Positions 1,992-58,612 of a stretch of 64,000 bases of DNA are shown piece by piece. This DNA comes from Blasia pusilla (Eukaryota). The stretch's first letter is position 1. Each line of letters opens with the position of its first letter. The translations under genes were made by a program, and so were the position numbers. The stretch covers positions 38,254,001 through 38,318,000 of the forward strand of contig CM114271.1 of NCBI GenBank assembly GCA_050084515.1, written 5' to 3'. The notes under the pieces were generated by a model. That model was given only the letters and a program-made list of their open reading frames with translations. It was not told where the DNA came from and ran no database searches.

Positions 1992-2187
1992 TGTCGTGTG
2001 CATACACATCGCTACACCAGCCACATCGTTGGTCACATCTACACACCACACAACACTCATCTTGACCAACGGTAACCTGCATGCACGGGTTACCAAGTGG
2101 TACCCAAAGATATGAAGTCTCCACCCCAAGAGCGCAACCGTCACCTGACTTTGTCTGCTCCAAGACACAGGCATGGCTCCACGCGTG
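1992..2187 (-). mobile_element. 3' remnant of a related, internally deleted gypsy element (element 3), split off by insertion of element 1
   Basis: On the minus strand it ends ...GATGTGTATGCACACGACA at 1992, matching the B-repeat end of elements 1 and 2. The frame HAWSHAC continues ADELVR from the other side of element 1. Confidence 0.75.
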
Positions 2188-2702
2188 TGTCACGTCTTTT
2201 AGGATAGATCGGTGAGATCTAATAGAGCGCCTTCGTGAGTAGTGGAGGACACGCTCAGTAGATCGCGGATGACCTGTTGAGGCCCCGGGAAACCTGAGAG
2301 AGCACGTTTCCCCTTCGTTTCGGCTCATTTGGAGCCATATTGAGGAACTTACTATTCTAGGTAATTACCATTTTCGATATATGATGGACTTTCTATTTTT
2401 GGTAAGTGGCCCTTGACCTCCTACATCAAGTCAAGAGCCAAGGAGGTGACTTGGGAGAATAGGTTACCATGGAGAGAGCTTGGGAGAGGGGAGGGGTATA
2501 CCTCAAGGAGAGAGAGAGCTTGAGAGCTCATTCTCTCTTTGTTGAACCTCTTGGCATGAGGCGGCGGAGCTATGGTCCCTTGCCTTGTGAGTGTAATCCG
2601 AGCCTCTCATTAGGAGAGTTGGTTTGGTTTGACATGAGAGAGAGTGCACACCTTGGAGAGTTATGGTGTGAGATGGTGTAGAGAGAGATTGGATCTTACT
2701 TT
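2188..2702 (+). repeat. Terminal repeat A1 of element 1 (about 515 bp)
   Basis: Closely similar to 10101-10249 (inverted) plus 10438-10802, and to 52607-53120 and 63288-63800. Confidence 0.93.
2496..2542 (+). promoter_or_regulatory. Putative TATA-like box (2496) and transcript 5' end / self-primer (2527-2542)
   Basis: TATA lies about 30 nt upstream of CTCATTCTCTCTTTGT, which is the exact reverse complement of 2703-2718. The start site is inferred. Confidence 0.6.
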
Positions 2703-2718
2703 ACAAAGAGAGAATGAG
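2703..2718 (+). promoter_or_regulatory. Self-priming-type primer binding site
   Basis: ACAAAGAGAGAATGAG directly after A1 is 16/16 complementary to 2527-2542. No TGG-starting tRNA PBS is present. Confidence 0.75.
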
Positions 2719-4250
2719 AGTAGCTCTAGAGGTTTTACGCGGAGTGGCGCGAGGTTCCGAGGGTCTCCACGTGAGGGACCACCTCGACCTCCTTCTGTGT
2801 CATCGTCAGATGAGGGGGAGGGTGTAGAGGAGTTTGTGAGCACATCGCCACACATTGTGAGTGGTCCTACTAGTTGGGCGTACGAGATGGACGACCGGGG
2901 TAGAGGACCGCGTAGGTTTTCAGTGCGAGGGGCACGATTGAGTTGCACAATTTTATAGCAGAGTTTAGGAGTTGGTGCGACTCCCAGCGGGCCAGGAACT
3001 CTAGAGAGTTCAACCCGTTTATAGCATGGAACGGTATGTTCCAGCATTTAGAGGGAGCGCCCATGGACGATTACCATGAGTTCTCTCAGAGATATGCATG
3101 TGAGATCGAGGCGTGGAGGCTCTACTATGACCCACATTATGTGTCATGGACGGAGCCGTTCCCAGATGAGGAGGAGGAGTCAGGAGAGGCTACAACCTCT
3201 TCCACTAGTGACGTTTTAGGAGGGGTGACTCGACGGGAGCGATTGCACCGTCTAGTCGGGTTCGCCCCGAGTTCAACCCTCGTGGTTGAGTTCTTTCTTT
3301 GAGTTGAGGGCGAGCTACCAGGGGGTACGGACGGAGAAGTTGCGGAGCATCCACGACTTCCAGAGGCGCCCGGGTGAGATTTTGCGTGAGGCTTACACTC
3401 GCTTGCGCCGGTTGATCAACGTCAGTCAGGGGGTGACAGAGGCTCGGGCTATCCAGTCATGGTACGCGATGCTGGACCGGACCCTACGGACACGGGTGTG
3501 GGAGGGGTGCTTCTTATGAACACCTCCCCTACGTTGAGAGATGTTTTTAGGACCGCCGAGAACATTGAGCGCAACATGGCGGAGGAGAGCGTAGCCACCA
3601 TGGGTTCTGGGCGAGAGCACTCACGATTGTCTGCACCACCTGTGCAGCAACGTGGACTCCGAGATAGGTCGAATGTGGCACCACGAACATAGGGAGGATA
3701 CCAGGAGGCCGTGCCACACAGACCTGCGCCTTCATATGCGGCTCAACAGCAGCCGCCTACTATTACTTGTTGGTCATGTGGTGGAGCCCATCATCAGCGC
3801 GATTGCACTCGTCGAGGGTCATGGACGTGTGCCTCAAAGATGAAGGAGGAGATGGTCCGCACAGGAGGTTATCGGTGTGACTATTGTCGAGGTATGGTCA
3901 TACACGCGCCAGGTGTTTGATTTACATCCTCGAGTTACGCCCGGACCGAGGGCGAGAGGGCACCAGAGCGAGTAGCGGTCGGGTGGGCCTAGAGATCGTG
4001 CACCAGGTGGTCCCGTTGGGGACGAGGAGTGGGGTTTCGGCGGGGTAGTGGAGAGCTGCCCGTGGAGGAGGTAGAGTACCACCACCTAGACGCGCCGAGG
4101 GAGACGCGGGACGTGAGCGGGATGGTCGGTCGCTTTCGATATCTGGCCGGTGCAGGAGGAGATTGCCGCTATGGCATTGAGGTTACCCGATGCCGGATCC
4201 GTGGCATCGACATCATATGGAGCAGCCAGAGATCTGGAGGATCCTTGATG
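2719..4250 (+). pseudogene. gag: gag-like region of element 1 (N-terminally deleted, frameshifted)
   Basis: Retrotransposon-gag-like FQRRPGEILREAYTRLRRL. Zinc knuckle CWSCGGAHHQRDC, and a second knuckle that is frameshifted here but reads C-N-Y-C-x-R-Y-G-H-T-R-A-R-C in element 2. Confidence 0.75.
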
Positions 4251-4799
4251 GATGTGCGGGGTTGCCCAAATGGAGGCCGCCGCAGTTGTGACGCGTGGAG
4301 CAGCCATAGAGTTGGATCCACAACGAGGGGAAGCCAAAAGACAGACTAGGCTTCCTCAGTCTTTCACGTTGTCCGAATCGATGAGGACCCCATCGATGGG
4401 TCCTCATCAAAGTTCGTGGAGAGTTGGTAATGTTGTTGGTATGCATGCACGGAGGGCGATGGGAGAAGCGAGTGCGACAACTCCTATTGTTGATGCTCAA
4501 GAGGGGCATGTGTCGAGCACGTTGTTGGGGGCGGCCACTGTTGTGTACCGCACTCCTTTATTTTTTGCTTCCAATGTTATGACGTTGGGGGGTACGCCCG
4601 CCGAGGCTTTTCGGCCGGCCGCTTCACTATGTGAGCGCAGAGTTGGAGTTCCTGCATCACGTTCAGAGGTGATTGTAGAGGAGGTGATGGACCTGCCCTT
4701 GGAGCGGATGCTCGGGCCGTCCACGTCAGATTCATGGCAGGCTACGGCTGCTAGGATGGCGGAGATGCCCGCTAGACCCGCGATAGAGCGTGCCATGGC

Positions 4800-5220
4800 T
4801 TCTCCTGGTGTTGTGTTGCTGGATAACCGAGGAGAGATCTTCCAGTTGGTCAGTCATGGAGGTAGAGCTTTTAGTCCGCAGCGTGTCTTGTTGGATTCAG
4901 GAGCGCAACCCTTGATGTTGGGGAAAGTGTCATTCAGAGGATTGGGCTTGACGAGAGCCGATGTGGAGCGTTGTCCATTCCGGATACAGACATCTTTGGG
5001 TGGAGCGAGTACCACACAGTATATCATCCGCCAGGAGGTCGTGGTGAGGATTTGCCCGGGACATCCTACAGATGAGTGCGTGGTACGCGCCAAGGCGATA
5101 GTGACTGATGCAGAGTCCTACGACGTCTTGGTTGGTAGAGCAGTGTTATACCCGATAGGGGTTTTCCCTGGATTATTGGGAGGAGTCAGCGTCCTCCAGA
5201 CCATGATGGCAGTCATGTGA
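4800..5220 (+). pseudogene. Retropepsin-like aspartic protease, element 1
   Basis: RVLLDSGAQ active-site motif (DSG 4894-4902) and downstream YDVLVG motif. Confidence 0.85.
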
Positions 5221-5608
5221 TGGGCGCCTTAGCTCATTACCCATTCGATTCACAGGTGCAGTGATCGAGCAACGGCCAAGAGAAATGGCGACCTTAGCAG
5301 CATTTAGCAGTGCCATCACTTGGCCTAGTGATTTGATTGAGGGACATGTCCATGCAGAGGATACTCCCGTTCCTGACATTTCTATGGAGAGGAGTGTTAT
5401 GGTAGCTGCATCATTCTATGGAGGAGAGGTGACGCTGTGGGGCTCGACTGAGGAGCTTCAACGAATGGCAGATGAGCACGTGCAGACCGCATGGAGCGAG
5501 GCGTTTGCACCAGAGCGTGACGGGTCTGAGGAACCCGAGGTAGCAAGGAGTGCTACGATGACACCCTTGGATACCACACCCATTGTGTGGTGTACCCCGG
5601 AGGAGGGT

Positions 5609-6520
5609 ATTCGAGTGTTAGATCTCTTTGGAGGGATTAGCACCGGGTTAGCTACTGTTTTGCAGGCAGGAGTGCGATTACAATAGTACCTGTATGTGGA
5701 GAGTGATGATGTTGCAAGGCGCGTCTCACTACGACATGTGGCGCAATTACGCCTACGTTTTCCCGACTTATTATGCATCCCAGCGATCTGGGTACCGAGT
5801 TCCCTACCGAGGGATATTTCGTTGTTGGGGGCGCATGACTTAGAGCGGGTAGGGACCATTGACTTGGTCATTGCCGGTTGGCCATGTCAGGGCCAATCGA
5901 GTGCTGGACGAGGCAGCGGGTTGGCTGTCACTCGGTCCAGGTTGTTTTGGGAGATGTTGAGGGTCTTACGGCGAGCAGAGCACAGATCTTGTTCTCGGCC
6001 TACCTTCTGGAGAATGTGCCGATCTTAGGAGACTCCAGGTCACGGGTGGTGACGAGTGCTCATCAGGTGTGTGCCTGGATTGGCCCAGCAGTGTTCTTGG
6101 ATGCGGCGAGTGTAGGTTCTAGAACCCATCGCCCGCGTCTATGATGGACCAACTTGGTACCCCATGCGGTGTTATGGAGGGCGTATGCGAGAGTGGAGTG
6201 CCCCTCCCATTTTTTAGTGGATTCCATTTTGGATCCATGTCATTGATCACAAGCAGTGAGGCACGATGATCGACCACCGTTGACTGTGGTCAACAGGGTA
6301 GGCAAGCCGCGGGCAGCCTTGCCCACGTTTGTGAGTTTTCCCGCTTCCTATGCATATAAGGAGGCCGGTCCTGGCTTGGTTTGGGATGACCAGGTTTATC
6401 GATTGGTGGAGCCCAACGCCGACGAGAGAGAGCAAGCGATGGGATTTCCCACAGGAGTGATGGCAGTACCATCAGTGTCAGAGGCATCACGACGTCATAT
6501 CTTGGGTCAGGCGATGGACC
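5609..6520 (+). pseudogene. C5 cytosine DNA methyltransferase domain (DNMT3-like) inside pol, element 1
   Basis: Motif I IRVLDLFGGISTG (5609), IV DLVIAGWPCQ (PC 5882-5887), VI YLLENV (6001-6018), VIII HRPRLxWTN, IX EREQAMGFP, X RRHILGQAMD. Interrupted by stops (5684, 6142, 6244) and frameshifts. Confidence 0.92.
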
Positions 6521-6886
6521 TGAACTGCTTGACATGGATCCTAAGCTTGGGAGTGGCTGATCAGCGTCGTATGAGATCGCAACAGATCACAGCTGTTGAG
6601 TTGGTGAGCCCCATGCCTATCGAGATGGTGGAGGCAGTGGCTAGGGGCGAGACCCGAGGAGATCTACGCACCAGGGGAGATCGGGAGAGACACCCTTGGA
6701 CTTCTTGGGATGTTTTGCAGGTACGCAAGGAGATGATAGCCACAAAGATCGGCGTGGTTTGCAACCACGTGGAGGAGATCGAGTTTGCGGTTGGCTGCAG
6801 GAGAGCGGCCGAGTGTTGTTGTTCAAGACGGGGTTGCACCATAGCAACCACCGATACCCACGCCGGAGAGTCCTACCGTAGTCACG

Positions 6887-8270
6887 ATGGAGACTTGGGA
6901 GCCAGATATGGGCCCTAAGTTGACAGGAGGAGAGCGGCGCCGAATACATCAGTTCCTCAAGAGTTATAGGAGCTGCTTTGCGTTTAGCATGGAGGATTTG
7001 GGTACGCTGAAGGGACGAGGGATCCGCATTGAGTTGTCGAGTGATATGCAGATCTTCCGACAACCCTAGGTGTCTGATGATATGGAGAGGGCTCGATTGA
7101 GTAGGAGCCAGGACTTGGTCGGAGCAGGACTAGTGGAGATGTCGCATGGGGAGTATGCATCTGCCACTATCATGCCCGCCAAGAAGGATATGCATGGCAA
7201 CTGGATGGATAGGCGGATGTGTGGGGATTACCGACCTATCAATCGGCAGACGAAGTCCAATAGGTATGCCATGCCCACCCCTGAGGAGATCTTTGATGCG
7301 ATTGGTCACGCAAAGGTCTTCAGTTCATTGGATTTGCGAGCCGGATACCATCAGCTGCCTATCAGATTGGAGGACAGGCAGAAGACGGCATTTTGGGGCA
7401 TCGATCCTCACGGGAAGGATTGTTTGTACCAGTGGCGGTTCTTACCATTTGGGTTAAAGAATGCCCCGGCTGAGTTTCAAAGGGTCATGGATAGGATCTT
7501 GGCTGGTCTGGATTTTGCTAGGTGTTATATTGATGACATCGTAGTCTTTAGCGCCACGGTTGAGGAGCATGAGCAACATCTAGAGGAGGTGTTCCGACGA
7601 TTGTAATTACATGGGCTGAAGCTACATCCAGGCAAGTGCAAGTTCTTCTACGACCAGATTGAGTACTTAGGTCATACAATATACCCAGGGGGCCTTGGTG
7701 TTCAGCAAACGAAGGTAGAGGCTATCTCACGCATTCCACGCCCTACAGATGTGAGTCGTGTTCGTATATTCATGGGATTGGCAAACTTCTATCGGCGATA
7801 CGTCAAGAGATTCAGTTCAATTGCGAAGCCGCTGACCTTGCTGACCAAGGTGGATCACGAGTGGCACTGGGGGGATGAGCAGAAGCAAGCATTTCAGTTG
7901 CTCAAGGACAGGTTGACGTCCGCACCCATCTTGAGGAGACCGATCGGGGCGTCCTTTCGATTGCACACATATTGGAGCATGTTGGGGCTTGGAGCGGTGC
8001 TCACCAAAGATGATGATGAGGGTAGAGAGTTCAGAGTGGCTTACGCTAGCCGCTCGAACAACGCGCAGAGGCGGTAATCTGGCTCGTATGAGGGTGAGTG
8101 CTTGGTCGCGTGTGGGGGTCGCGCATTTCAAGTGTTACTTATTCGGCAACCCTTTTACCATCATCACTGATAATCAACCACTGAAGTGGTTGATGGAGTC
8201 CGACAAGCTTACAGGGAAGCTTGCGAGATGGGCTCTGTTGTTGCAGGAATATGATGGGATGCTCAACCAG
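6887..8270 (+). pseudogene. pol: Reverse transcriptase and RNase H, element 1
   Basis: RMCGDYRPIN, FSSLDLRAGYHQ, LPFGLKNAP, YIDD (7526-7537). RNase H motifs LGAVL, VAYASR, FTIITDNQPL, LARWALLLQEY. Confidence 0.97.
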
Positions 8271-8669
8271 GATGTAGATGGGTTGAGTCGTAACCCATTC
8301 CCGAGTCAGCAAGATGCGACTGGAGCTCGATGGCATGGAGAGAGTGATGAGGAGTCGGTGCGAGGATGGCACACGTCAGCCTATTTAGGCATGTTGGCTA
8401 TGGAGAGCCAGAGTGTGGAGACTTCGATGGCGAGGTCTAGTGGAGAGTCCTTGGATCCCGAGACCAGTGAGGACATGGCAAGTGGCCGAGATATTCATGA
8501 TGATGGAGTAGTCTTGGAGTACCTTCGTACTGGCAGCGTTGCGAGCACGATGGATGCTAGAGAGCGGGATCGGATCCTACAGCGGGCCAAACGGTTCCGT
8601 TGGGAGGGGACACATGTTTTGAGGGTTTGGGAGGATGGTAGAGTACTCGTAGTGCCGCATCCTTTGTAG

Positions 8670-9931
8670 AGAGCACGACTAGTGCAGCATGCCCACGAGG
8701 AGTTGGGTCACTTTGGCGTGAAGCGGACGTACAGCTTGCTCCAGATTCAGTATTGGTGGCGAGGCATGCAGACTGACGTTCAGCAGCTTTGTTGCCAGGT
8801 GCATGGTGTGTGATCGGGTCCGAGCATCATTCAATGCTCCGACTCCTGATTGCATCCGTTACCGATCATGGGCTTAGGGTATAGATGGAGTTTGGATTTT
8901 GCAGGACCTTTGCCCTTGACGGAGCGTCACAGTCGTTATGTGTTGGTGATGGTCGAGCACTTCTCGAAGTGGATCGAGTTGGTTGCATTGCCTGACAAAG
9001 CGAGTGAAGGAGTAGCTTATGCCTTCCTTGACAGAGTGGTGAGTCATTATGGCGCACCGGCTGAGGTGTTGACAGACCAGGAGTACCGAAGTTTCGCGGT
9101 GAGTTCCAGGCCTTGTGTGATCAGGCGCTGATCGACCACCGCACGACTTCGCAAGATCATCCCGGGGCGGATGGATTAGCGGAGAGAGTTGTGCAAACGG
9201 TGAAGAGGGGTTTACGCAAGTATGGCTTGCAGAGAGGTCACCTAGGAGATTGGGACCTCCAGTTGCCATGGTTGGCGATGGGATCTGATTCAGTGAGCGA
9301 GCATCCTTAGCGTCTTTTTCACCGTACTTGCTACTTTATGGCGAGAGCCAGATTTACTGCGCCATTCGTCGAGATCTTTGGTGATTTGCTGGACCTTGAT
9401 GACCCAAATGTATGGGTGCGAGCATGTTCTCAGAGGGCTGAGTTATTTCGGAGAGTGATGCCCATGGCGTTCAAGAACTTGGCGATTGCACAACATCGGG
9501 ATACGTTGAGGTATGCGACTATTCGGGGTGGTGGTTATCGACCAACTATCCGGAGGTTTCATTTGGGAGATTATGTCTACTTGCAGCAGACGGCACCGAC
9601 GACGTTGGATGTGACTGCAGGGCGCACTATCCTGAGAGTGCGTGACATTTTTCCATCGGGTGTTCTCTTGCTGGAGGGACGCAATGGTATGGTATGGAAG
9701 GACCATGTGCGTAATTGTGCACCATGTCACCTTCCTAACATTGATGGTACAGTAGATCCGAGCTTAGCAATAGTTCCTGCAGGCTTGCGTTGTATGTTGT
9801 GTGGTTCTGCCCGTGGTGTGGCCACGATGCTAGTCTGTGATGGGTGTTCGAGAGGATGGCATATGGCATGTTTGACGCCACCTCTCACTAGGGTTCCTAA
9901 GGGAGGATGGATGTGTCCCAGATGTACATAG
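8670..9931 (+). pseudogene. DDE integrase with C-terminal PHD finger, element 1
   Basis: HHCC (HEELGHFG...CMVC) and core WSLDF / VLTDQ / GLAER. C4HC3 PHD finger CMLC...VCDGC..GWH..CL.PPL..VP.G.W.CPRC at 9791-9925, stop at 9931. Confidence 0.95.
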
Positions 9932-10100
9932 AGTAGGTAGTTCTACATTCCGACTTGTGTCTGTGACATGGATGAGAAGAAGGCGACTAACATGGGGCCA
10001 CATGAGCACCCGGCCTTCTTGCTCTTAGCGTCCGAGAGATGTATGTCATGGTAGGTAGGGATAGATGTAAGTTCCTTAATATTGAGGAACTTACTATTTC

Positions 10101-10422
10101 GGCTCCAAATGAGCCGAAACGAAGGGGAAACGTGCTTTCTCAGGTTTCCCGGGGCCTCAACAGGTCATCCGCGACCTACTGAGCGTGTCCTCCACTACTC
10201 ACGAAGGCGCTCTATTAGATCTCACCGATCTATCCTAAAAGACGTGACAGCTGTCGTGCACATACATATCGCTACACAACATACATCGCTGTCACCGAAC
10301 ACACACACAAACACGCATGATCCCATGCTAACTCATGGCATCCAAAAAACGGGAAAAGAAGTACCAAAATATCTCCAATCGCCCCCCTAGTTGGTGGTTA
10401 GGTCCCTCTAACTCCAGATAGC
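10101..10422 (-). other. Inverted segment in the 3' end of element 1 (PPT + B1 + first 149 bp of A2), flanked by 26-bp palindromes
   Basis: Its reverse complement is colinear with about 63116-63436 of element 2. Palindrome TAAGTTCCTCAATATTGAGGAACTTA at 10427-10452 and a 1-mismatch copy at 10068-10093. Confidence 0.9.
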
Positions 10423-10437
10423 AATATAAGTTCCTCA

Positions 10438-10931
10438 ATATTGAGGAACTTACTATTTTAGGTAAGTACCATTTTCAGTATATGATCGACTTTCTATTTT
10501 TGGTAAGTGGCCCTTGACCTCCTACATCAGGTCAAGAGCCAAGGAGGTGACTTGGGAGAATAGGTTACCATGGAGAGAGCTTGGGAGAGGGGAGGGGTAT
10601 ACCTCAAGGAGAGAGAGCTTGAGAGCTCATTCTCTCTTTGTTGAACCTCTTGGCATGAGGCGGCGGAGCTATGGTCCCTTGCCTTGTGAGTTGTAACCCG
10701 AGCCTCTCATTAGGAGAGTGGGTTTGGTTTGACATGAGAGAGAGTGCACACCTTGGAGAGTTATGGTGTGAGATGGTGTAGAGAGAGATTGGATCTTACT
10801 TTGATTGGAGATATTTTGGTACTTCTTGTCTCGTTGTTTGGATGCCATGAGTTAGCATGGGATCATGCGTGTTTGTGTGTGTGTTTGGTGACAGCGATGT
10901 ATGTTGTGTAGCGATGTGTATACGCATGACA
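10438..10931 (+). repeat. Remainder of A2 (10438-10802) and terminal B2 (10803-10931) of element 1
   Basis: A2 part matches about 2337-2702. B2 GATTGGAGATA...GCATGACA matches inverted B1 (10252-10380). Confidence 0.9.
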
Positions 10932-13870
10932 CATGTCTCACGAGCTCATCTGCACTCCATGCAACAACACTCGTCCCCAACAACGATAAAGAAAACTCTA
11001 CACCATGGGAAGAGACACCCACCTTGGCATGTGTCTCTGTGGGACTATCCGCTATGGGAATGTCCTCCACATGTATGCTCCTCTCCCTGAACCCTCTTGA
11101 GCAACTAACACCACCTGTGAATGCTGCCACCGTGGTCACCGTATCCTCACGTGGTTGACCACCACTGCCCCCTACAAACTGCACCGGTAGATCCCTCACC
11201 CGTCCATCACCTAATCGCCACCCTGACCGATAAGAAATATTCTCCTCCCAAAAATCCAGAATGAACCAAGGGGATACAACACCGTACTCCTTACCAACAC
11301 ATCATATGACTCTGTCAATGTTGTAATCGCCCGATTGCGCACCATGCCACCGTTGCACTATCCGTCTCATGCTCTAGCTGGAGTCTAACCACCAACTCCT
11401 GTCGAGTCATGTAGTGTGTGGGTGATATGCCCCCAATAGAAGTATGTATCTGAAAGGGAAAATGCTCTATGTTGCCTTTCCGTAACCCCAACGCCAACAC
11501 GCCGCCTTCCCTAACATCAAGGGCTGCGCTCTTGAATCAAGTAGGACGCAGTGCGGGTGGTACACCGTACCGGTGGGACTAACCAAGCGAAACAATCCAG
11601 CTTGGTAATCCAAAAACACCACACCTGGTGTGATCATGGCTTGCTTTAGCAATAGCATATCTACCAACTTTTCCGCCACAGCATGCCATGACTGAGTGGG
11701 GGACATCCCGAGCACCTGCTCCGAGGGTAGGTCACCACTTCCTCAACTACCTCTTAGCAAGAGGCAATCACCTCTCCACGCTCACACAACATGGCGGCTA
11801 GTCAAAAAACCTCCTCTAGTTTGACTCCCAACGTCACCAACTCCATGACAGAAAAAAACAGAGTATGGCTCATCCTAGTGGCCACCTCCAACAACGTGGT
11901 AGACATTGGCTCTACCTGAGCCGGCATAGAAGTCGTCTCTCCAACTCCTCGTGGCGTTGATGCACTTGCCTCATCCATGGGCACTACTGGTTTCCGAGGT
12001 ACCATCGATGGTGTATGCAATACCTCCGACAAGGTGAACGACTAGGGAATCCTAGCCTGCCGCCCATCGTCCCCTCTTGTGGATCAATCTCAACCCCACT
12101 TGTCGATGGCTCGGTTACTCTCGCAGCATCTCGAGTCACCACCGGAGCAACCTCAACCTGAGCTGCACTACACAGAAATCCCATACCAGAAAAATCCTCA
12201 ACAGTATTGTGGTAAGATGTGGAGGCTGGCACCACACTAGCTACTCTCAGCTTCGTGCTTGACCTTAGTTGTATCATCGTCATGACAGCAATCCTCTGCT
12301 CCAACTGATCGATGCGAGTAAGGAGCGCTCCATCGGGTGCACGTCCTCCATCTCCTATGACTGGTGATGGAACTCTACCACCAAGATCATCCACTACTCG
12401 ATCTCCACCAACTCTCTCGCCCCCAAGTCCTCTACCTACCTCTAGACGTACATCGCGGCAAAGCATCTATCCCTAGTGTGACCATATCGATGACATTGAT
12501 CACATTGCATCTATGGTAGGGCCATCCTAGATGGCTCCTGAGCAATCGCAGGCGGCCTCAACCCTCTACCATGTTGTGGGTAGTCCCTCTGCCTATGTGG
12601 CCCACCACACGTCCAACAAGCCCACCCTCATCCCTATTGGGTAGCATATGTCGGTACGGGCCGGTGCCTCATCGGCTCACGATAACCCCCTTGCTCTTTG
12701 GGCCCACCGGCCCGCTCCCATGGTCCTCCGATGGAGGACTTCATGGAGTTCCCTCGATACCTCACGCCACTCCATGTCACTCCACTGCCACTGCTCGTAC
12801 TACCCCGTTCTTATGAACCGTGGAAGAACGCCGTGGTGACAACCCTGTCTCACCCCGCTCAAGCGCTCAACTCACCAAGAGTCTCCCACACTCCTCACTA
12901 GCTCACCTACGCTAATGGTAGCCCCATGATGACATACTCGGCCTCACGCACACTCACCACTCGGGCTCACCTTGAGCCTCTCGACTAACTCACCTAAGTC
13001 ACAAACATACTCTCGGATCATACACACGACCCCTACTCGGCAACCGCCGTATAGCCATAAACATGCTACACATACATGGAAACTACACTCGTCACCATCG
13101 CTACACCCATCTAGCACCAACAACTACTCAATACCCATCACTCTCAATGACACAAGATAAGTGCAGGAAAAGGGACTCGAATGGGTAACCTGAACACGAC
13201 TCCCAATCTACTATACGTCAACACTAACTCCTCCATGTCATGCAGCAACCTTCGCGGCACACACTCTCCTCGACCAATATGTCAAACCTCTTCTCAACAG
13301 ATGCGGACGACCCATGTGTCTCTAGCACTACTCGCGCGAACCATCTCTAACTAGGCAACAAATGCCGATCGGCAAAACCCACTCTCTAAATTCCCACTAC
13401 TCTGAGAAAATCGCAACTCCCCCCAACCATGTAGTTCTCCAATGAACGAATACTCTGTTTCGCCCTACCATGTACAATGTCTAACTGCATCTGCTCCCAC
13501 CATATAATCCCGTACTAACTGAGTAGTTGCTGAATCACCACGTCTGGACCCAACCATGTCACCTGACCGCAACTGCGTATTGCCTCTATCCCTTCTGCCA
13601 CCTCCCGGACCGCGGATCTTCTTCCTCCCAAACACCATGGCACCTGGTTGCACTCTTCCCTAACACCGTTCTCTTCCAATCTTCACCTGGCCACTTCTAG
13701 CTCTTGTGGCACGCCGCCCTATGTGGCCAGCCCCACAACCTCGGAGCTGTGTTGCATGCTCTCCCCACTACTCAGCCTTTTCTTCCTCTTCTACCCCTTA
13801 GGACCGCAGCTCTTGCGTGAGCGCGCAAACCTATGCGCCTTGCCCCTAGCCCATGCGCGGCTCCCTGTGC
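10932..13870 (-). mobile_element. Element 3: older, diverged relative of the same gypsy family (leader, partial gag, protease); 5' boundary uncertain
   Basis: VLLDSRAQPLMLGK protease, AQVEVAPVVTRDAA and LPVQFVG...IHVEDIP are homologous to element 1. GTGTTCAGGTTACCCATTC (about 13179-13197, minus) is shared with the element 2 leader (about 54316-54334). Confidence 0.82.
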
Positions 13871-14599: not shown

Positions 14600-16620
14600 A
14601 AGCAATTTTGAGAACATCATCTACAGCAATTTTGAGAACACCCTAGTCTATTCCTACAATTACTCTTTATCATGTTCTGAATTGAGAATGCTCTCTCACA
14701 AACTGCAATGCTCGCACATTGAACCCTCGCAACACTAGCCAACACCAACAAGCTTGCAAACTTGCATTGTAAAGATTGACTCCAACTCACCATTGCCCAC
14801 AGATCCCCGAAATTATGATCTTTCCACTCACTTATCGCCATCAATTTGAAGGATTGGAATTCTTGCTTGACATTAACAGAATTAATGATAAAACGTTGCA
14901 AATGCCCCTTCATTGGTAACTTAGATCCAAAGTGTGCACACAACTCTTCTATATCCTTACATCCCCAACTTAGGATCTTAGTTGTCTAGAAGGCATGTGC
15001 AAGGGGTTCAGGATTTTCATTGCACCAATAGGATTATTGTCTGTGAATTGATCTTGCAAAGCTAGACAAACACTATCAGCATGACTCTCCTAAAACAATA
15101 GAGCAGCTTCTAAATCCTTGCATGTGCGATCTCTAATCATGTCTATACTATGGAACTTCCTCCCTCTAATTTCAGATTATAAGTCTGATAGAATGTGCTA
15201 ACCTCTAATCTTTGAAAAATTAGATACATTCAAGTCATGAGTCTCCATCATGAAATTCATAGTAATAACAACAGTCTCAAAGCTAACAATGTTGCCAATT
15301 GAACTCACATCAATAAATTTTTACTGAAATATCTTGCTTAAGTTAGCCAACATAAAAAGAATATCAGCCAAGAAGTATAATTGATAGATTATACTGAACA
15401 ATCTTAACTTGTTATACAAGCTTACATCATTCCCATCATCTTCTGAAGGGGAAAATGTCCCTAAAGCAAATTAAAACAGATTCTGGTGAATCACATATAA
15501 TGGATACAACTTGCCATCGTGACAACCTTCGAATCTTATGATATCTTTTCATAACTCTTTGGGAGTCATTCATCTTCTCTTGTAGAGAAACTAGAACAGA
15601 TTTTCGTTTGGATGACTTCTAGAAATATCCTGGTACAACATTAAGAATAGAATCTACTTCTATGGAAATGGATTTGCAATTACTAGCTTTAGCAGTTATG
15701 AGAGTTGCAAGGTTTGTCCTATGAGCAACACAATGCACTGAAAGAATGAACAAATTTACCTTTTGCTTCAGTTGTGAAGCCACCCCATTATGGCTCCCTA
15801 CCATTGAGGAGGTTCCATCCGACCTGAAACCTACCATTCTAGAAAAGTCTAACCCCCCATCTTTAATTAGCTCTAACAAACTATAAGTGATAACATTAGA
15901 ATACATAGACTCGCAACGAAGCAATCCTAAAAAACAACACTCAACTTGACCATCTTCTATGAAGGTTGCAAAGACTACCAAATGACCTCTTACAGATATT
16001 TCAGTAGATTCATCAATCATAATTCCAAAGAATGGTGATGCCTGAACCCTAGCAAGGGTCCTTTTGAGCAGAACTTGACTTATACAAAAACACATTTCAC
16101 TTCAGTTAAGATCTTTACCATTTCACTTTAGTAATATGTGCATTCACGAAAAGCATCAACTTACAAACACCTGTGAACTCTGAGAAAGGCATGACCTCCT
16201 TGCACACCTAAATAAAGTGAGCAAAACTATCTCACATGTTCGATTGGATGTGGCAATGGTCTTGGCCATGGATTTTTTTCCTCCATTAGTTGCCCAAGCT
16301 AACTTGATATGCATGATCAATGAAGCCAGACACTTTACAATTTATGGCACCCTCCCTGGCAAAGACATTCTTGCCTTTACCTTTTCTACACATATTACAA
16401 TTAATTCTTCCAATTGAAGAATCTAACATGATCCAATCATACATGATGTACTAAACATCCCTCCACGCTTCTCAATTTCGCAACTATGGATAAATTACTT
16501 CCTAACAAACTCTCCTCTTCCTTCTCATCAGATGATCCTGAAAGAACTATGATCTCTGGTTGTGCCTTGGGGACCTCCTTGCACAATAAGTCATTCATAG
16601 TTCTATGTCTTTTGGCCATT
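14600..16620 (-). pseudogene. Degenerate hAT transposase (ZNF862-like type)
   Basis: FFGIMIDESTEIS (first D), GFRSDGTSSMVG (second D), VHCVAHRTNLA (CxxH), SIAVCERAFSIQNMIKSNCRNRL (E and dimerisation domain). Multiple stops. Confidence 0.88.
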
Positions 16621-21198: not shown

Positions 21199-22225
21199 GG
21201 AAATCCTTGTACCATTCTTTACCCAAACAAATAGAAAATAGATATAAAACTATAAAATACAATGAATTGATACATGGACAATATGGTAAAGCATTCCATC
21301 TAAGAATTAAGGACGCCGAGAAATTATGGGAAAATTCACAAGATTATCGGTAGGATTGTGGTAAATAGAAAGCATTCCAATTTTTTTTTAAATTGGAAAT
21401 CCTTGTACCATTCTTTTACCCAAACAAATATAAAACAGATATAAAACTATAAAATACATTTAGTGGATAAGTGGACGATATGGTAAGGATTCCATCTTAG
21501 AATTAAGGACCCCGAGAAATTATGGGAAAATTCACAAGAGTGGCGGTAGGATCGTGGTAAATAGAAAACATTCCATCTTGCACACACATTACACTCAAAA
21601 AAATTAAATTTAAAAAAGTTTGGAAATCCTTGTACCATTCTTTTACCCAAAGAAATAGAAAACAGATGTAAAGCCGAAAGTATTCCACTCTTTCTTTTAC
21701 CAATTCTTTTCTGTGTTGTTGTTAGTTAGCGGAAAATAGAAACAAATAGAAAACATGTGGAAAACTATAAAAAAAAAAAGTGAATGGATAAGTGGATAAT
21801 ATGGTAAGCATTCCATCTTAGAATTAAGTACACCGAGAAATTATTGGTAAATTCACAAGACTGTTGGTAGGATCATGATAAATAGAAAGCATTCCATCTT
21901 CCATACACATTATACTCAAAAAAAATAAAATTTTCTATAAAATTGGAAATCCTTGTACCATTCTTTTACCCAAAGTTTTATACTCGAAGAAAATCATAAT
22001 TTATTATACGATTGGAAGTGGGAAGTTGTTGTGCGTAGCCGAAGGAAAGTATTCCACTATTTCTTTTACCAATTTTTTTCTATGTTGTTGTTAGTGAGCG
22101 GAAAATAGAAACAAATAGAAAACATGTGGAAAACTATAAAATAAAGTGAATGGATAAGGGGACAATGTGGTAAGCATTCCATCTCAGAATTAAGGACGCC
22201 GAGAAATTATGAGAAAATTCCCCAC
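21199..22225. repeat. AT-rich tandem array, about 4 copies of a 200-320 bp unit
   Basis: GGAAATCCTTGTACCATTCTTT at 21199, 21395, 21622 and 21945, each followed by CATTCCATCT.AGAATTAAG...CCGAGAAATTAT. Confidence 0.92.
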
Positions 22226-23707: not shown

Positions 23708-26700
23708 TCATGTGCATGTGGAACCATCCATATTCAAAAGCACTGATCTTGCATGTGTGTCTAGCTCATCTTGCAAGCCCAATCTCTTCTTTCTTGGTCT
23801 TGGCTTTGGAAAGGATGGTAACCTACTTGAGGTTCCATCCTGGGATGGACACAAGACTGTGTTATATCCCAATCCATGTTGTGTACTCTGTCTCTTTGCT
23901 TTTTCTGACCAACGCTCAATGTTGGACTTCACTCGTTTGACAGAATTATTGTTTTGGAAACCATCATTGTATGTCTGAAAGGGGTTTCCCGGTTGCTGTG
24001 TCAAGCCATTTCTAACAACAACTTTTGTTGTTTCAATCCGACCATTTATTTCCCTCAACATTTTAGACGCCATTCTTAAAAGCAAGTCACTACCATGGCA
24101 ATGATTTTGCAACTCAGAGTACAGTTTGTCCATAGTAGCCTCCATTTCTTGGGTTAAACTCGATAAATAAGATTCTTCGACTACTAGTGTTGTCTCAAGC
24201 GAAGGGCTTATACTCGTCTCTGTGTATGGAATTCATTCTGAAAGACACTTCAAATTCAAATAATCAGATTCTAGTTGAAACCTGAAGCATAAGTAATAGC
24301 CAAATTATTTCAATGTACTTGCACTACAAGATTTTGTATTAGTATTTAAAAGGAAACTTGGTATTTTGTTGAGATCGAGGAGGTCGCCGGAGATATGACT
24401 TTCAATAGATCTTGAATTCGTCACTGTCATTTTTAGTTGTGCAATTCCTCCCCATTTGGTGCCCAATCGTCTTCCAAGTATATTCACAAGGTCCTCTTCG
24501 TTGTAATCCTCTCGTAACAAAGCTGCAATCTAGAGAGAGATCTCATCATAGAAATCATGATACTTGCATTAGAATATGGACAATAAGACAATTTGTGGTA
24601 CCCAAAAAGGAAAACAAAAGTATTACTTACCATGTGCTTGCAGATGTTCCCCTTTAGGGACCAAGGACACTCACAATGACCCCATTTGGTGTCATAGTTG
24701 TATACTTCATACCATTTTGTTGGTATTGTTTGGCTCCTAACACGTGCCATCTTTACTTGCCCCCTTGATTCAATAAGCTGCACATCGCCTGTTGGGATTT
24801 CTCTTCCTTTCAATACTGCATTATTCACATATTGCTCTTCTATTGCGTTTTGTACAAAACCTCTTTTTTTCAAGTGAATGTGAAAATACCAAGCCTCTAC
24901 AAAACTGCTAAGCTTCCAAACTAGGTAGTCTCCTCTTCTTCGAGCAATACTCCTGTTGTCATTAGCAAGAACTGCTTTCATGCTTCCATGATATGCTTCA
25001 ATTGCAACGTTCGTGTCTTGGTTTGCATGAGGGTAGTCCCTTGCCACTTTCACCCACTTACCTATGCTCAAACAAAAATACATAGATTTATAATTAATCT
25101 AGACACTTGCAATATTAATATTCTAGAGAAAAAACCAAAGAAAATATCACTCATATACCGATTATGTAAGTATTGCAAATATATCGGAGAAACAAAGACA
25201 CCCACCTAATTTTGGCTCCCAATAAGTCCTTATATAGTTGATGAATTCAACTTCCTCTTTGAAGTCTGAATAGAATTGTTGTAGCAAGATCTTTGCATCA
25301 TCCAAAATCACACCTCTAGTGTATGTGCCACACCGATTTACGTACATAATTTCTCCTAGATGTCGTGACATGTGAGCTCTCATGATTGCACATCGAACCT
25401 TTCGTTTCAACTGCTTCAACCAGTCATGGCGTACATGCCAGAGACACAATATGATACTTGAGTTGGAAAATATTACCCTGCAAGTAAAGTTATTGGTGAG
25501 TTACAGCATGATTGAAAAAAAATACCCGGAATACCTTCAATGCATGTGACCAATATGCCTATGTAACAGAATGAAAAATCATATTGAAAAACAAAAACAC
25601 GGCTATGGAATGACCCTGTAGCAAGAGAATACTTCAATGCATATCCTTAATGTACCTCAATGCATTTTGCTTGGCGTTGGCAACGTCTACTATGATTGCA
25701 TTCGGCTCCCAATAGGGTTGTTGTCTTCTACATTTGGTTACCACTGCATGTAGCCATTTCACCAAGTGCACCTCCTTGGAGCTACTGGTCAAAATCCATG
25801 CTACAAGTATTCCAGTGTGGTGCTCATCAAACACTAAGATGGTATACAAAGGAAACTACACACAAAACTCCAACACATCAGGATTGTTACAAGTAGACAT
25901 GAAATTAAACTTTGCAAAATTTTATTTTGTGTACATATGAATAACGAGTAACGAACCTTGCTTCGAGTAGTGCCAAAAGTACTATCCATGCTAAGGACAC
26001 TGTTGTATCCGTATTTCACTATCAATTGCAATTGCCAAGCGCTCTGGAATCCCAATATGAAAGGTCTTGGATCATCAAAATAAGGCTCATAAAAGAAGAC
26101 CTTCTCTGGATAGAGGTTTACATAAGTACTCAAAGATTCATTTTCATCTAAACAAAACTGGAAAGTCTCCATATTCAAGGACTTCTTTGCATTTGAAGGA
26201 AATCATCCCTTGTCATACTCCCCTCAAAGTCAGGAGAGGTGTCAGATCTCATTTTAAGTATCATCCCATGCTCGCACATAATCTGGTGGGGCTTTATCCC
26301 GAGTCTAAACCTCTCCTTTATGTAACATATCAACTCCTTTGAGATCATAGGAGCATACATTTTAGGAGTGTCCAAACTTGTTGGGTCATTATTGCTGTGG
26401 CATGGCATCCCATCCTTGTCAACATGTAATCTATGTTTGTAAATGATCTTAGCCACATACATTGGAGCCTTGATTTCAGATACATAAAAGTGACAGAGAC
26501 ACCCTTGCTTCCAACTATCTCCCCGTACAATTTTTTGGGCACGAGGCCGACTACCTGGGCCTGATTTGGGAATGCTTGACCTGTATAAAAAGAGAGGAAT
26601 GCATCCCATCATACATAAATATAGTATCTCTCCAGGAGGGACAAAAGCAATGGAAATAAATTGAATGCAATATATACAAGAACAAAAGATGATTGATCAG

Positions 26701-27173
26701 CTTCCTTGTCTAACTTTCCTTGTTCCTATCATTACTCCACTTTAAAAAAATATACCACTTATCCCAGTTCACCTGCTCACAACCGATTGATGGAAGTGTC
26801 GCTTGTCTTGAGGTCCGTAAGCACAATAGTACATGGTGTATGATGATTCCTCGCCTTCGTCTTCTCCCAATCTTTCTCCTCTGCACCTGGATGTGCCCTT
26901 CCAAAAGCTCGTGGGGTTTACATTGTATCCATTACCCTCCCCGATAATGAAGTCCTCCAACCTATGCCAGGGGATATACGATGCATTATAGAGATCCCAA
27001 TGGAGATCTTTTGCTGATATGTATCCCATCGGCAAGTCTGCTTGGTGTTCCATCATATTCGTGGCTAGAATTCTGCTTGTCAATGCACTTCTATTTCCAT
27101 GCGTATTTTCCTCCACTTGTTCATGTGATGGAGGAAGGGTTGATGTCAAGTCAACAGGATTGTCGATATCCAT
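23708..27173 (-). pseudogene. Multi-exon Mutator(MULE)-type transposase with SWIM zinc finger, resembling the plant At4g13970/At1g60560-type family; probably disrupted
   Basis: YIPWHRLEDF, YYCAYGPQD, KQGCLCHF..HVDKDGMPCH, SMDSTFGT (D), ILVFDEHHTGILVAW, AIIVD (D), CLWHVRHDW, DTNVAIEAYH (E), SWIM CECPWSLKGNICKH. Apparent frameshift near 26180. Family resemblance is from memory. Confidence 0.85.
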
Positions 27174-29210
27174 ACTTACCTAAATACAAGAATTTGATTA
27201 TAATGCATGAGAAAAGTCATATGATCTTCAAAAAAAAAAAAATACAAGTACCAAAATTAAATAAACAGTAAGATTGTGAGAAATGACGGAATGCCTTTCA
27301 ATACTACAGATTCTACTCTCCTTTACAAGTATCACAGAAAATGGGATGAATGTTCATAATGTAAGCACACAAAGATCCTAAAGAAAAAGTCAATTTAACC
27401 CATAACAAAAAGTGATAAGGGGATGATGTCCTTTCTTGAACATACCCCTTTAATTCCCTACCGTCATAGAAAATGGGTGAATGTTGGCAACATAAGCACA
27501 CACAGAGCCTACACAGAAAGTAAACTTAACCGATAGTACTAAATCAAAGCTCAAATATGATAGCCATCGAACAAAAATCCTTAAAATACATACTAGACAA
27601 AAAACAAGCTCAACCATTCCAATATATCAGACAAATCATGTGATCCTCGACAAAAACCTCGAAAGTAATCAATGTCATAAAGTAATATAAGTGAGAGGTG
27701 ACGGAATACCTTTCGGCTGTACATATTCTACTCCTAAAGCCTTGCAATATAGATATTGTGAGTCCCTATATGGAAACTGAATTTTACCAACAATACCACC
27801 CTATAGTTCAAGTGACGGAATACCTTTCAGTAGTGCGTGGTATACTCCTAAAGCCTTAGATAATACCCAAATCATCAAGCATGCTTTTCAAAAGACATGA
27901 GTGTAACATAGTCTTCTCTAGTTGTTGTAGTGATTTAATTTTCAAAACATACGCCTTGACTCTTCTACTTCCTTTACTCTCCTACTGTCGTACAAAAAGG
28001 ATTAATGTCTACAATATAGATACTCTAAGTGCCTATATGGAACTTGAATTTTACTTAAAATACCACGATAAAGTTGAAAAATTATAGGCATCTTCCAATA
28101 TAACAAGGCATGTAATCAAACTAAAAAAGTAGTAGACAAACACTAAGAGTGTGAGATATGTCAGAATACCTTTTGGCAGTACATGCTCTAACAGAAATCC
28201 TATAAGTACCTAAAACTTACTCATCTGAAGAGTAGAAAAAATCAAAATCGATTATTGGTGTATGGAGTGAGGATGAATGAATCCCGCAAATACCAAAGAA
28301 AGACCAAGAGTATTAAGATGAAAAGACACCTTCAAGATAGATTTTCTCTATTTTCTAACAATTGGAGTGAGATCATTCTCACAATACACATTTTATAGTC
28401 GCCTACTGTCAAACAAACAAAGTCAAAAAATTAACAGTATGGTAGTGGCCTTGGCGGAAAGCCTTATGATATTACTATATCTGCTCCAAAAAACGCACTG
28501 TGATTGTGACATTGACGGAATACTTTCTGGTAGTACTATGTCTAATCTGAAAGCTCCATTTCCAAGCAAAAGCACATGTTTGCTTCACATGACAGGAGTG
28601 TTACAGACTAGTTTCTATCATTGAGAGTGAGGTCATTCTCAACCTCACGTTTACACTCCTAATTTCACAAAAAATGTGAAGAAAGAACATCTAAAGACAT
28701 GGAGTTCGTACATCGAATCTTATTTAATCTACAATACTAAAAGAGAGCTATTCGTACCCTCCTAAAAATAAGTCTTGGAGACCATAAACCATACTATTAG
28801 CCTGTATAGAGTTGGAGTCACAAATATTACTCTATGCATAATTATAAAATGATATAAAGGAATCTCTGTAAGAAAGATCTCCCAATTTTCGGCCATGTGA
28901 AACCAAAATCCGCTCCAACCTGAAAAAAACACATCAATAAAACTTATGAATTATCAACAGAACTTTGTTATCCAAAATGATCTCCTCAACATGTTGAAAG
29001 AAAAAAACTAACAAAAGAATGCTCTCATTAACAAAATTAAAAAAATGTTACCTAATTCTTACGCCGCTTTCGCCCCATTATTGATTTGCCATATACATTC
29101 TTCCTTTTTGCCCGTCGAGTGGGTGGTGTAGCCAACATATCTTGAAGGACCTCTGACCTTGTCTTCCCTAGTTCTCTACACTCCTCCATAGTGGGAGATA
29201 ACCCCGTGTG

Positions 29211-52606: not shown

Positions 52607-53120
52607 TGTCACGACTAGTAGGATAGATTGGTGGGATCTAGCAGAGCGTCTGCACGAATAGTGGAGGACAGGCCCAAGATGTCGAGGACGACCTGTTGAG
52701 GCCAGGGGAAACCTGAGAGAGCAAGTTTCCCCTTCGTTTCGGCTCATTTGGAGCCATATAGAGAAACTTACTATTTCGGATAAGTTTCCATGTTGGGGAT
52801 AGTTGACTTTCCACTTTGGGAAGTGGCACTTGACCCGCTATAGTAGATCAAGAGCCAAGGAGGTGACCTGCGAGCATAGGTTACCATTGAGAGGGCTTGG
52901 GAGAGGGAAGGGGGAAAACCTCCAAGAGAGAGAGCTTGAGAGCCCATTCTCTCTTTGTTGAACCTCTTAGCATAAGGCGGCGGAGCTATGGTCCCTTGCC
53001 TTATGAGTGTAACCCAAGCCTCTCATTAGGAGAGTGGGTTTGGTTTGACATGAGAGAGAGTGCACACCTTTGAGAGCTATGGTGTGAGATGGTGTAGAGA
53101 GAGATTGGATCTTTCTTTTA
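52607..53120 (+). repeat. Terminal repeat A1 of element 2
   Basis: Matches A2 at 63288-63800. Followed by ACAATGAGAGATTGAG, a degenerate self-priming PBS. Confidence 0.93.
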
Positions 53121-54640
53121 CAATGAGAGATTGAGAGATCTTCATGGGGGAGCTCCTAGGTCACTCGCTGTTTTTGCAGGTTGGGGACCGTGTACTCCGT
53201 TCAGCGGCTCATGGGAGTGCTCACCGGAGCAAGGGCTACTTTGATTGTTCTTTGCATTTGCCGATTTTTCGTGTGGAAGAGTGGCGCGCGGAAGCGCTGC
53301 CCAATTTCAGATAGGGATTGATTATGGGGGCGGGTCGCCCCCTGCTTCCGCTCTTGGGAGCACCATGTAGCTTTCTGATTTGTATTTTTACAGGTTTTAC
53401 ATTTTTTTGGAGAAATCAGCGCGGAAGCGCTGCCAAATTTTGTGTAGGAGAAAGAGACATTTGGCTTTACAACAATCCCTGTCAGTTTTTACTTGAATGT
53501 TCAATTCTAAATATATTTTGACATTGTTGTAGATCGCAAAGTTGTGCATGCTGTGCAACAAACAATGTGCAATTTGGAGTTTTGAGCAAAAAGTTATGGT
53601 CAATCTTGAAAAATTGCCATTACTAGGCGATTTTTAGGGTTAAATTGTTCAAACCCTAAACCAACCGCCACACCGGCAGTGGCTGTCGCCGTCATAGTCA
53701 CCGGTCAATGGTCAACCATCATTGTCAATGGTTCACCATCCATTGTCCACCCTTTGGTTGCCATTGCCGCCATTACGGAATGGAGGGTCTTCCACGACGT
53801 TCGTTGATTCTCTAACTTGCGTCGCCACCACGTACTTTGTTTAGGCCGCCACCGTCATCGCAATTTTGTCATCAACTAGTGATGGAAGATGACCTACGGT
53901 TATGGTGTTTGAGTTTGATTTCATGCTGCTATGTTATGATTGGTAGCCGCTCGATGAAGATCGAGTACCGTGCCGTGACGCCTGTAGCCGCAACGCCGCC
54001 GATTGCTGCGCTGTGCCGCTCGTGGCCCAACCACACTGTCTCGATCGTGGAACCGCTCCTTCACTAAGGAGCAGAGTGTGTGAATTTTTGATTGAGGAGG
54101 GTATGCTGCCGAGTGCCGCTCCCCATTCCCGAGTGCCGTGTTGTTTGTAGCCGTTCCGTGCCCCCAGTGCCGCACAGGACCGCTCGACCTACACCGCACA
54201 TCGAGGAGGTTGAGTAGCGTCAGTACGAGAGGAGTACGACTTGCTAATTGGAGGAGTTCTCTTCACGACCAAGTTGGGGTCGAGATTTGCAGTTGCTGAG
54301 GAGCGACATCGATATGTGTTCAGGTTACCCATTCTGGTCCTTTACACTGCACGTGTGAGGGATTCTGGGATTTGGGTAGTTTATTTGGGGATATTGGGTT
54401 GTGTGGATGTTGAGAGCATCATTCATGTATGTGGTTTAGGGGACATAGACCTGTGTGAGATGTCCGAAGTTGAGGGTAGGTTATCGATGAGATGATAGCC
54501 TCGTCGATTTGCCGCACCATGCCGCGTGTTGTCGCACGTTACACGTCTCGGGGAGGGAGAGTGTAGATTGAGTGCCGCATGTTTGGGATAAGTGATTGAG
54601 GGATAACTCATGAGGTTGAGAGTGATCGGGTGAGAGGGGC

Positions 54641-58260: not shown

Positions 58261-58612
58261 TGCAGTGATTGAGCGACGGCCAGGAGAGGTGGCAAGCTTA
58301 ACAACATTTAGCAGTGTCATCACTTGGCCTAGTGATTTGATTGAGGGACATGTCCATGCAGAGGATACTCCCGTTCCTGACATTTCTATGGATAGGAGTG
58401 TTATGGTAGCCGCATCATTCCGTGGAGGAGAGGTGCCGTTGTGGGGCTCGATTGAGGAGCTTCGACGATTGGCAGATGAGCACGTGCATACCACGTGGAG
58501 CGAGGCGTTTGCATCGGAGCGTGACCGGTCTGAGGAACCCGAGGTAGTAGGGAGTGCTATGATGACACCCTTGGATACCACATCCATTGTGTGGTGTGTC
58601 TCGGAGGAGGGT

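Follow-up and report, generated by a model that had tools for sequence, protein, structure and literature searches.

The 64,000-nucleotide (nt) stretch of Blasia pusilla DNA analysed here (contig CM114271.1 of assembly GCA_050084515.1, positions 38,254,001 to 38,318,000 of the forward strand; hereafter, the window) is eukaryotic DNA that carries two decayed copies of one Ty3/gypsy-type retrotransposon, element 1 at 2188-10931 and element 2 at 52607-63910, both on the plus strand and 86-96% identical to each other depending on the stretch compared. Our subject is a 16-nt complementarity across the end of the first repeat of this element and its probable role in the priming of reverse transcription. 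A Pfam scan of 15 stop-to-stop open reading frames (ORFs) of element 1 returned a C5 DNA methylase (DNA_methylase PF00145, 5687-6028), a reverse transcriptase (RT) domain (RVT_1, 7070-7606), a ribonuclease H (RNase H) domain (RT_RNaseH, 7607-8669), an rve integrase (8850-9131) and, in the C-terminal ORF at 9311-9931, a PHD finger (E 2.7e-11); no chromodomain was matched in this last ORF and no Phage_integrase (tyrosine recombinase) in any of the 15. Together with a gag CCHC zinc knuckle recognised by eye at ~3770-3810, element 1 shows the Ty3/gypsy pol order RT - RNase H - rve. Stops and frameshifts are numerous in both copies, and element 1 has additionally suffered one deletion and one inversion; both copies are dead, and the proposed self-priming signal discussed below is a relic here.

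The repeats of the element are split and follow the layout A-internal-B-A-B (that is, A1, internal part, B1, A2, B2) known from DIRS/PAT elements. In element 2, this layout is complete: A1 (52607-53119) is followed by the internal part, a purine-rich tract (AGGAGGGCG, 63150-63158), which is the proposed plus-strand primer, directly before B1 (63159-63285), a two-base spacer (63286-63287) between the ACA-like end of B and the TGT start of A, A2 (63288-63799) and B2 (63800-63910), with which the element ends in ...CACAACA. Element 1 begins with A1 (2188-2702), which starts with TGTCACG and would, in the reading proposed below, comprise a U3 tail and R-U5. This repeat is 97-99% identical to the two pieces of A2, one at 10438-10802 (plus strand; A positions 150-515) and one at 10101-10249 (inverted), and the element closes with B2 (10803-10931), ending in ...CATGACA. 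The termini are thus of the form TGTCAYG ... CAYRACA, the left end belonging to A and the right end to B, i.e. not to the same repeat.

These outer ends are also the ends of the integrated unit. Element 2 is flanked by a perfect 4-bp target-site duplication, ACTC (52603-52606 and 63911-63914), and element 1 by CGTG (2184-2187) and CATG (10932-10935), which agree at 3/4 positions. Across 16 copies (the window copies and relatives described below), the direct repeat on either side of the element, before A1 and after the last B, was perfect in four (element 2; L005, CATA; L036, ATAA; L040, TTTT), matched at 3/4 in four (element 1, L016, L029 and L034) and at 2/4 in one (L070), and was unreadable in seven. 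Such flanking repeats indicate that the integrated unit begins with A, finishes with B and entered a staggered 4-bp cut, as expected of an integrase. At the inner B1-A2 junction, all 22 copies compared (by eye, from printed junction strings) read CAYRAYA, two bases, TRTCATG, the end of B nearly matching the start of A in reverse complement. Within each element, B1/B2 divergence is close to A1/A2 divergence, which fits both pairs having been identical at insertion.

It is the end of A that carries the signal of interest. Repeat A of element 1 ends at 2702 (A1) and 10802 (A2), and the 16-mer at 2703-2718 (ACAAAGAGAGAATGAG, plus strand), the proposed primer-binding site, therefore starts at the first base after A. 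It is the exact reverse complement, over 16/16 positions, of 2527-2542 (CTCATTCTCTCTTTGT, plus strand), the proposed first transcript bases and self-primer, with no extension of the pairing on either side, and the latter arm is found again at 10626-10641 in A2. A TATA box at 2497-2500 (plus strand) lies 30 nt before 2527. In element 2, the TATA of A1 is mutated and the equivalent of the 3′ arm (53120-53135, ACAATGAGAGATTGAG) carries two point changes, such that by eye it pairs 13/16 with the 5′ arm in A1 (52943-52958) and 14/16 with that in A2 (63624-63639), and its best partner is no longer found at the boundary. The pairing, the spacing of about 30 nt from a TATA and the two figures for element 2 had all been reported in a first-pass annotation of the window, and each of them holds.

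That annotation had named chance pairing of GA/CT-rich tracts as a reading that would undo its proposal. When the 40 nt after A in element 1 were compared with A itself, the longest perfect complement was 16 nt, as against a maximum of 12 in 3000 dinucleotide shuffles of both sequences, 11 in 3000 shuffles of the 3′ side alone and 10 in 182 real 40-nt windows of the element interior. Given that shuffles reach at most 12 and interior windows at most 10, the match is not due to GA/CT richness, and the chance explanation is contradicted.

To place the pairing in a wider family, the RT of element 1 (P0001, with one TAA read as X) was used as a query. Among named relatives, those most similar to it come from the liverworts Calypogeia fissa (75% identity) and Marchantia polymorpha (74%, the latter with PF00145), followed by more distant ones in Closterium and Klebsormidium (42-49% RT identity for the Klebsormidium proteins), and the combination of RT, rve, PF00145 and PHD recurs in many further relatives. 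P0001 and 15 relatives were aligned and used to retrieve 80 loci from metagenome contigs. Grouped by the homology of their repeat A, these loci and the window form three subfamilies: I, the window; II, L002, L004, L005, L008, L012 and L021; and III, L029, L016 and others. The B-A-B arrangement after the coding part is present in element 2 and 19 metagenome loci, with the caveat that L030 and L031 seem to be a single element that was sampled twice; three further loci end with their contig just after A2. By contrast, L004, L021, L040, L044, L046 and L051 have A, the coding part and a single B, with no A2-B2 although the contig continues. These single-B copies could be dead-end insertions or B1/B2 recombinants; one of them, L040, is the copy flanked by TTTT. 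A possible fourth subfamily (L010, L011, L013, L014, L020, L047 and L063; RT identity 54-59%) showed neither flanking repeats nor the junction motif.

The boundary pairing is a property of the family rather than of one copy. Twenty copies keep the junction between A and the leader (2 in the window, 18 from the metagenomes), and in these the region 22-60 nt after the TATA was scanned against everything downstream. In 16 copies, the best duplex with up to two mismatches fell between -7 and +2 nt relative to the end of A, and a scan without mismatches gave eight copies with a duplex score of 11-16.5, which none of 100 shuffles reached. Importantly, the three subfamilies have three different helices in the same place: one arm begins 26-34 nt past the TATA, and the other lies at the end of A or no more than 3 nt from it. 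For subfamily II (L008), AACATAGTTCTTTGAGT pairs with ACTCAAAGAATTATGTT through 16 Watson-Crick pairs and one GU, whereas in subfamily III (L029), TAGTTTTTCTAGAATT pairs with AATTCTAGAAAAACTA over 16/16 positions; the arms of both are non-GA sequences. The subfamily II arm, too, begins with the first base after A if the shared A is counted as part of B, and the subfamily III duplex overlaps the last 3 nt of A. Arms pair best with partners from their own subfamily (mean best duplex 10.0, 8.9 and 10.8, vs 5.1-8.4 across subfamilies), the own value being higher in every row, and control windows 60 or 120 nt off the boundary score 5.4-6.2 vs 10.0 at the boundary. Changes on both sides of a pair within subfamilies were seen by eye for two pairs in L002 and one in L019. 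A MAFFT alignment of all three subfamilies lost the register of the arms, and scans of each copy's own window were used in its place. As two alignments differ in the register of the 5′ arm, what we claim between subfamilies I and II is a change of partners and not compensation column by column.

The 3′ end of a transfer RNA (tRNA) is a poor candidate for the primer. The first-pass annotation had noted the absence of a tRNA-type TGG primer-binding site, and indeed there is no TGG at the boundary or within 25 nt of it in the window, L008, L029 or L016; in element 1, no TGG follows A before 2745, ~42 nt downstream. Because TGG is absent there in every subfamily, a tRNA 3′ end cannot pair at the boundary. 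A conventional contrast is offered by L078, an unrelated element (RT 36% identical) with ordinary long terminal repeats (LTRs) at 2-800 and 7023-7822, 99.6% identical to each other, followed by sequence starting with TGG.

A TATA precedes the 5′ arm in all three subfamilies, and in copies with a boundary duplex its first T is separated from the arm by 30 nt (window), 26-33 nt (subfamily II) or 31-34 nt (subfamily III). When the RNA was folded from the 5′ arm to just beyond the 3′ arm, the terminal helix was predicted in both the minimum-energy and the centroid fold in all three subfamilies, with fold z-scores of -3.95 for the window, -5.02 for L029, -4.61 for L016, -2.35 for L046 and -2.17 for L008. 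Three stranded raw RNA sequencing (RNA-seq) runs carrying the same species label, together with one DNA run, were placed on 2100-3000 at 88% likeness. Sense-strand reads dominate, and RNA depth is ~50-330 over A (100-330 over most of it), beginning at 2188, and ~5-35 past 2720. Reads over the B1-to-A junction appear as 70, 154 and 100 loose ends before 2188/2190 in the three runs, reads crossing from A to B2 number 19 in run X22, and 29, 29 and 28 sense reads run from A through the 16-mer into the leader. These reads show that the family is transcribed, with most reads over A coming from the 3′ copy; the two-base spacer, too, is crossed by RNA reads. In the DNA run (X1), A (2188-2702) is 10-100 times deeper than the element interior, which suggests many solo repeats or non-autonomous carriers of A.

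The leader itself is long and untranslated. In element 2, it covers 53138-54699 (plus strand) and is present as well in RNA reads and in a distant minus-strand relative (~12800-13300). Element 1 has lost ~1.56 kb of it at 2720-2721, corresponding to 53138-54699 of element 2, with GAGAG microhomology at the break and position 2716 aligning to 54695. That this gap is a deletion in element 1 follows from RNA reads of other, intact copies, which carry the leader and leave loose ends behind 2720 and before 2716.

Taken together, 2703-2718 is probably the primer-binding site of an LTR-type retrotransposon that is self-primed in the manner of Tf1. Inside A, transcription by RNA polymerase II would begin ~30 nt past the TATA, at 2527 or a few bases from it, and the leading 13-16 bases of the transcript would anneal to their complement just after A. 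The RNase H of the element, whose domain is present in the Pfam scan and hence available for this cut, would then cleave the RNA and free a 3′ end, which RT would elongate backwards across the terminal 176 nt of A (R-U5). What we infer in this scheme is where exactly the RNA begins, that RNase H cuts it and that it acts as the primer. The proposal accounts for the position of the repeat edge: A would end exactly where the complement begins because extension from the self-primer starts there. The plus strand would be primed at the G-rich polypurine tract before B, giving an RT-made LTR of the form B-nn-A. B1 directly follows a G-rich purine run in seven of the eight copies examined, examples being AGGAGGGCG (window) and stretches of 6-9 G (L005, L016, L029, L036 and L070); in the exception, L034, the local alignment began inside B. 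This lends independent support to the earlier assignment of the end of A as the U5 boundary, and with A ending at the self-primer site and B starting after the polypurine tract, both edges of the split repeats would be set by primers of reverse transcription.

Several observations weigh against this reading. The boundary duplex is not the best match in four of the 20 copies: element 2 of the window (W_el2) has the two point changes, L021 has lost the 5′ arm and L070 the 3′ arm by deletion, and L002 retains an 8-nt perfect boundary duplex that is outscored by another duplex when mismatches are allowed. Among 13 aligned copies of subfamily III, covariation is not above shuffles, 463 of 500 of which do as well as the observed pairing; 82.7% of cells are paired vs 41-60% with slid partners and only 1/16 pairs is changed on both sides, meaning that within this subfamily pairs are kept by conservation and not by covariation, in a test of low power, given the age and decay of the copies. 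The register of the window helix relative to that of subfamily II depends on the alignment, and the two alignments disagree. The case against a tRNA primer covers the tRNA 3′ end, ARAGORN having found no tRNA genes in the window or in the 40 of 80 loci scanned. A second partial partner of the post-A arm lies in R-U5, ~83 nt upstream of the end of A; it is perfect over 11 nt in L005 (4681-4691), has one mismatch in most subfamily II copies and comes to 8 nt in the window (~2595-2605, by eye), and it may represent an alternative fold or a helper contact. Finally, the three RNA-seq runs show no pile-up of read starts on 2100-3000 and hence no mapped RNA 5′ end, and depth rises by just 35, 19 and 25% from bin 2503-2533 to bin 2534-2564. 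Since most reads over A derive from the 3′ copy, any step in depth would be hidden, and the RNA-seq neither establishes nor contradicts a transcript start near 2527.

Of the claims made in the first-pass annotation, the covariation it called for is therefore borne out across subfamilies, through three helices with specificity for their own partners, and does not rise above shuffles within subfamily III. The self-priming interpretation, for its part, is supported on comparative grounds by the three subfamilies and not by experiment.

What else could the helix be? It might be a structural element of the leader RNA, comparable to the U5-leader or U5-IR stem of retroviruses, or a packaging or translation signal, with some other primer binding the same or an adjacent site. 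Retroviruses do have long-range stems closing R-U5, the second partial partner of the 3′ arm (in subfamily II, and over 8 nt in the window) suggests alternative folds, and the RNA-seq mapped no RNA 5′ end. Yet a purely structural helix leaves aside that A ends where the helix arm begins in three subfamilies, and it is at this end that a primer must bind because the LTR edge is set by the primer's 3′ end. Nor does the boundary offer a TGG or any post-A sequence common to the three subfamilies that one host RNA could bind. We therefore consider this explanation unlikely.

Alternatively, the pairing could act on the split repeats, bringing RNA or cDNA ends together for a DIRS-like circle instead of serving as a primer. 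The A-internal-B-A-B layout is that of DIRS/PAT elements (as in a figure legend of PMC5890265), the primer of which is unknown according to PMC7192593. However, both arms lie in the same repeat-leader unit, 130-176 nt apart, rather than at the two ends of the element. The element encodes an rve integrase, lacks a tyrosine recombinase and is flanked by 4-bp target duplications, and why A ends at the arm is left unexplained, all of which makes this a very unlikely account. As for a functionless, accidental match between GA-rich and CT-rich tracts, the region does abound in such runs and element 2 has lost 2-3 of 16 pairs without compensation, but none of 3000 shuffles exceeds 12, real interior windows stay at or below 10, the same arrangement is built from non-GA sequences in subfamilies II and III, and pairing within subfamilies exceeds that across them, so that the idea can hardly be entertained.

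If self-priming sets the end of A, the split repeats themselves invite an explanation. It is possible, and we put this forward tentatively, that what appears in this integrase-bearing lineage as DIRS-like split repeats is a circularly permuted LTR. The cDNA would be an ordinary one with the LTR B-nn-A, and the A2|B2 junction would correspond to joined cDNA ends, like the junction of a 2-LTR circle. Instead of using the cDNA ends, the integrase would bypass them in favour of the near-palindrome inside the LTR (...GTCAYGACA nn TGTCATGAC...), which would be cut as insertion-sequence transposases cut a circle junction. The product would be A-internal-B-nn-A-B with a 4-bp target duplication, and copies with A-internal-B only would be dead-end insertions from the two inner sites, or else B1/B2 recombinants; recombination between B1 and B2 explains these copies equally well.

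Should a permuted LTR be the right description, it would provide a concrete mechanism for a repeat layout shared with PAT and Ngaro elements, whose priming and end repair are unknown, and would mean that a eukaryotic retrotransposon has a DDE integrase acting on a circular or joined-end intermediate. By the same reasoning, the split repeats of tyrosine-recombinase elements could find an explanation too. Self-priming as such is established and has been predicted for some plant elements, and the signal alone is no surprise. Its value lies in serving as an anchor: together with the polypurine tract, it would make both edges of the split repeats primer-defined, in a methyltransferase-carrying Gypsy lineage that reaches from streptophyte algae to liverworts.

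The damage to the window copies and their surroundings can be described briefly. The inverted block of element 1 (10060-10437, minus strand) comprises B1 with the tract that precedes it and the first 149 nt of A (A2). A 24-nt palindrome (AAGTTCCTCAATATTGAGGAACTT) is found at both of its borders, the left copy having one mismatch, and the left border also carries a duplication of 20 nt of A (positions 150-169). A third, distant member of the family extends on the minus strand from 11003, where it is truncated ~70 nt past the end of element 1, to ~13900, with 40-60% likeness at the protein level over gag and early pol and a leader resembling that of element 2. No A-like repeat was recognised at its 5′ end, and it therefore yields no primer-site data. 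By eye, the minus-strand ORFs at 50561-52354, 15619-16101 and 24484-27179 resemble a Helitron-type helicase, a hAT-type transposase and a MULE/SWIM-type transposase, respectively. The window further contains a (CT)n microsatellite just upstream of element 1 (1519-1598), a family of 112-161-nt direct repeats (21225-22220) and a 207-nt tandem duplication (30139-30546) within a long minus-strand ORF (29459-30583).

Among known systems, the closest parallel for the priming signal is provided by Ty3/gypsy elements of the Tf1/sushi group, which self-prime with the first bases of their own mRNA. Like Tf1 of Schizosaccharomyces pombe and sushi, the window family has no tRNA-type primer site, the bases following its LTR are complementary to the predicted transcript start in the same LTR, and an RNase H domain is available for excision of the primer. 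The duplex of Tf1 measures 11 nt, that of the window family 10-17 nt. Unlike Tf1 and sushi, the window element has a PHD finger in place of a chromodomain, its pol includes a C5 DNA methyltransferase and its repeats are split (A...B-A-B). The likeness is one of sequence features, with the RNA 5′ end and RNase H cut deduced on our side, and it implies no placement in the Tf1/sushi clade.

In plants, 12% of the elements surveyed were predicted to self-prime, namely Tcn1 (Ty3/gypsy, in mosses and clubmosses) and TAR (Ty1/copia), as stated in the article text (Neumann et al. 2019, PMC6317226). As in our case, these predictions concern non-seed plants and were drawn from sequence alone. The portion of the article text covered here makes no mention of Marchantia, Klebsormidium, PHD or methyltransferase, and the window lineage thus seems to lie outside that survey.

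Two other comparisons concern the junction and the layout. IS3/IS911-type insertion sequences of bacteria form circle junctions. In foamy virus, the integrase cleaves the palindromic LTR-LTR junction of 2-LTR circles (PMC1180852). Both resemble the window family in that element ends are abutted head to head in a near-palindrome with a short spacer that is cut by a DDE enzyme, the cut being a proposal for the window family. In the latter, however, the abutted ends (end of B, 2 nt, start of A) lie inside the RT-defined LTR and not at joined cDNA ends, and they are known from sequence alone. With the DIRS order (PAT-like elements and Ngaro), the element shares the A1 - coding - B1 A2 - B2 split direct repeats; DIRS elements use a tyrosine recombinase, while the window element encodes an rve integrase and has inverted TGT...ACA ends as well as target duplications of 4 bp.

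The nearest described relative in overall design is KnitGypsy-Dnmt3 of Klebsormidium nitens, in which a Gypsy-type pol contains a Dnmt3-like domain and which the legend of Fig. 4c presents with a DIRS-type repeat structure and Gypsy domains (de Mendoza et al. 2018, PMC5890265, in the parts covered). It is like the window element in its C5 methyltransferase within a Gypsy pol and its DIRS-like layout, in keeping with the RT relatives at 42-49% identity in Klebsormidium, and unlike it in that the closest named relatives of the window RT are liverwort proteins. The portion of the article text covered gives no primer site, polypurine tract, target duplication or replication model for KnitGypsy-Dnmt3, and one of its supplementary files contains neither 'PBS' nor 'primer binding'. 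A literature search returned KnitGypsy in the 2018 paper only and no later description of a DNMT3 + integrase + PHD retrotransposon of Marchantia. Set against these systems, what is new is the joining of self-priming with a DIRS-like layout in which the split repeats look like a permuted LTR, turning an arrangement so far noted, in the sources covered, only in a figure legend into a testable model of replication.

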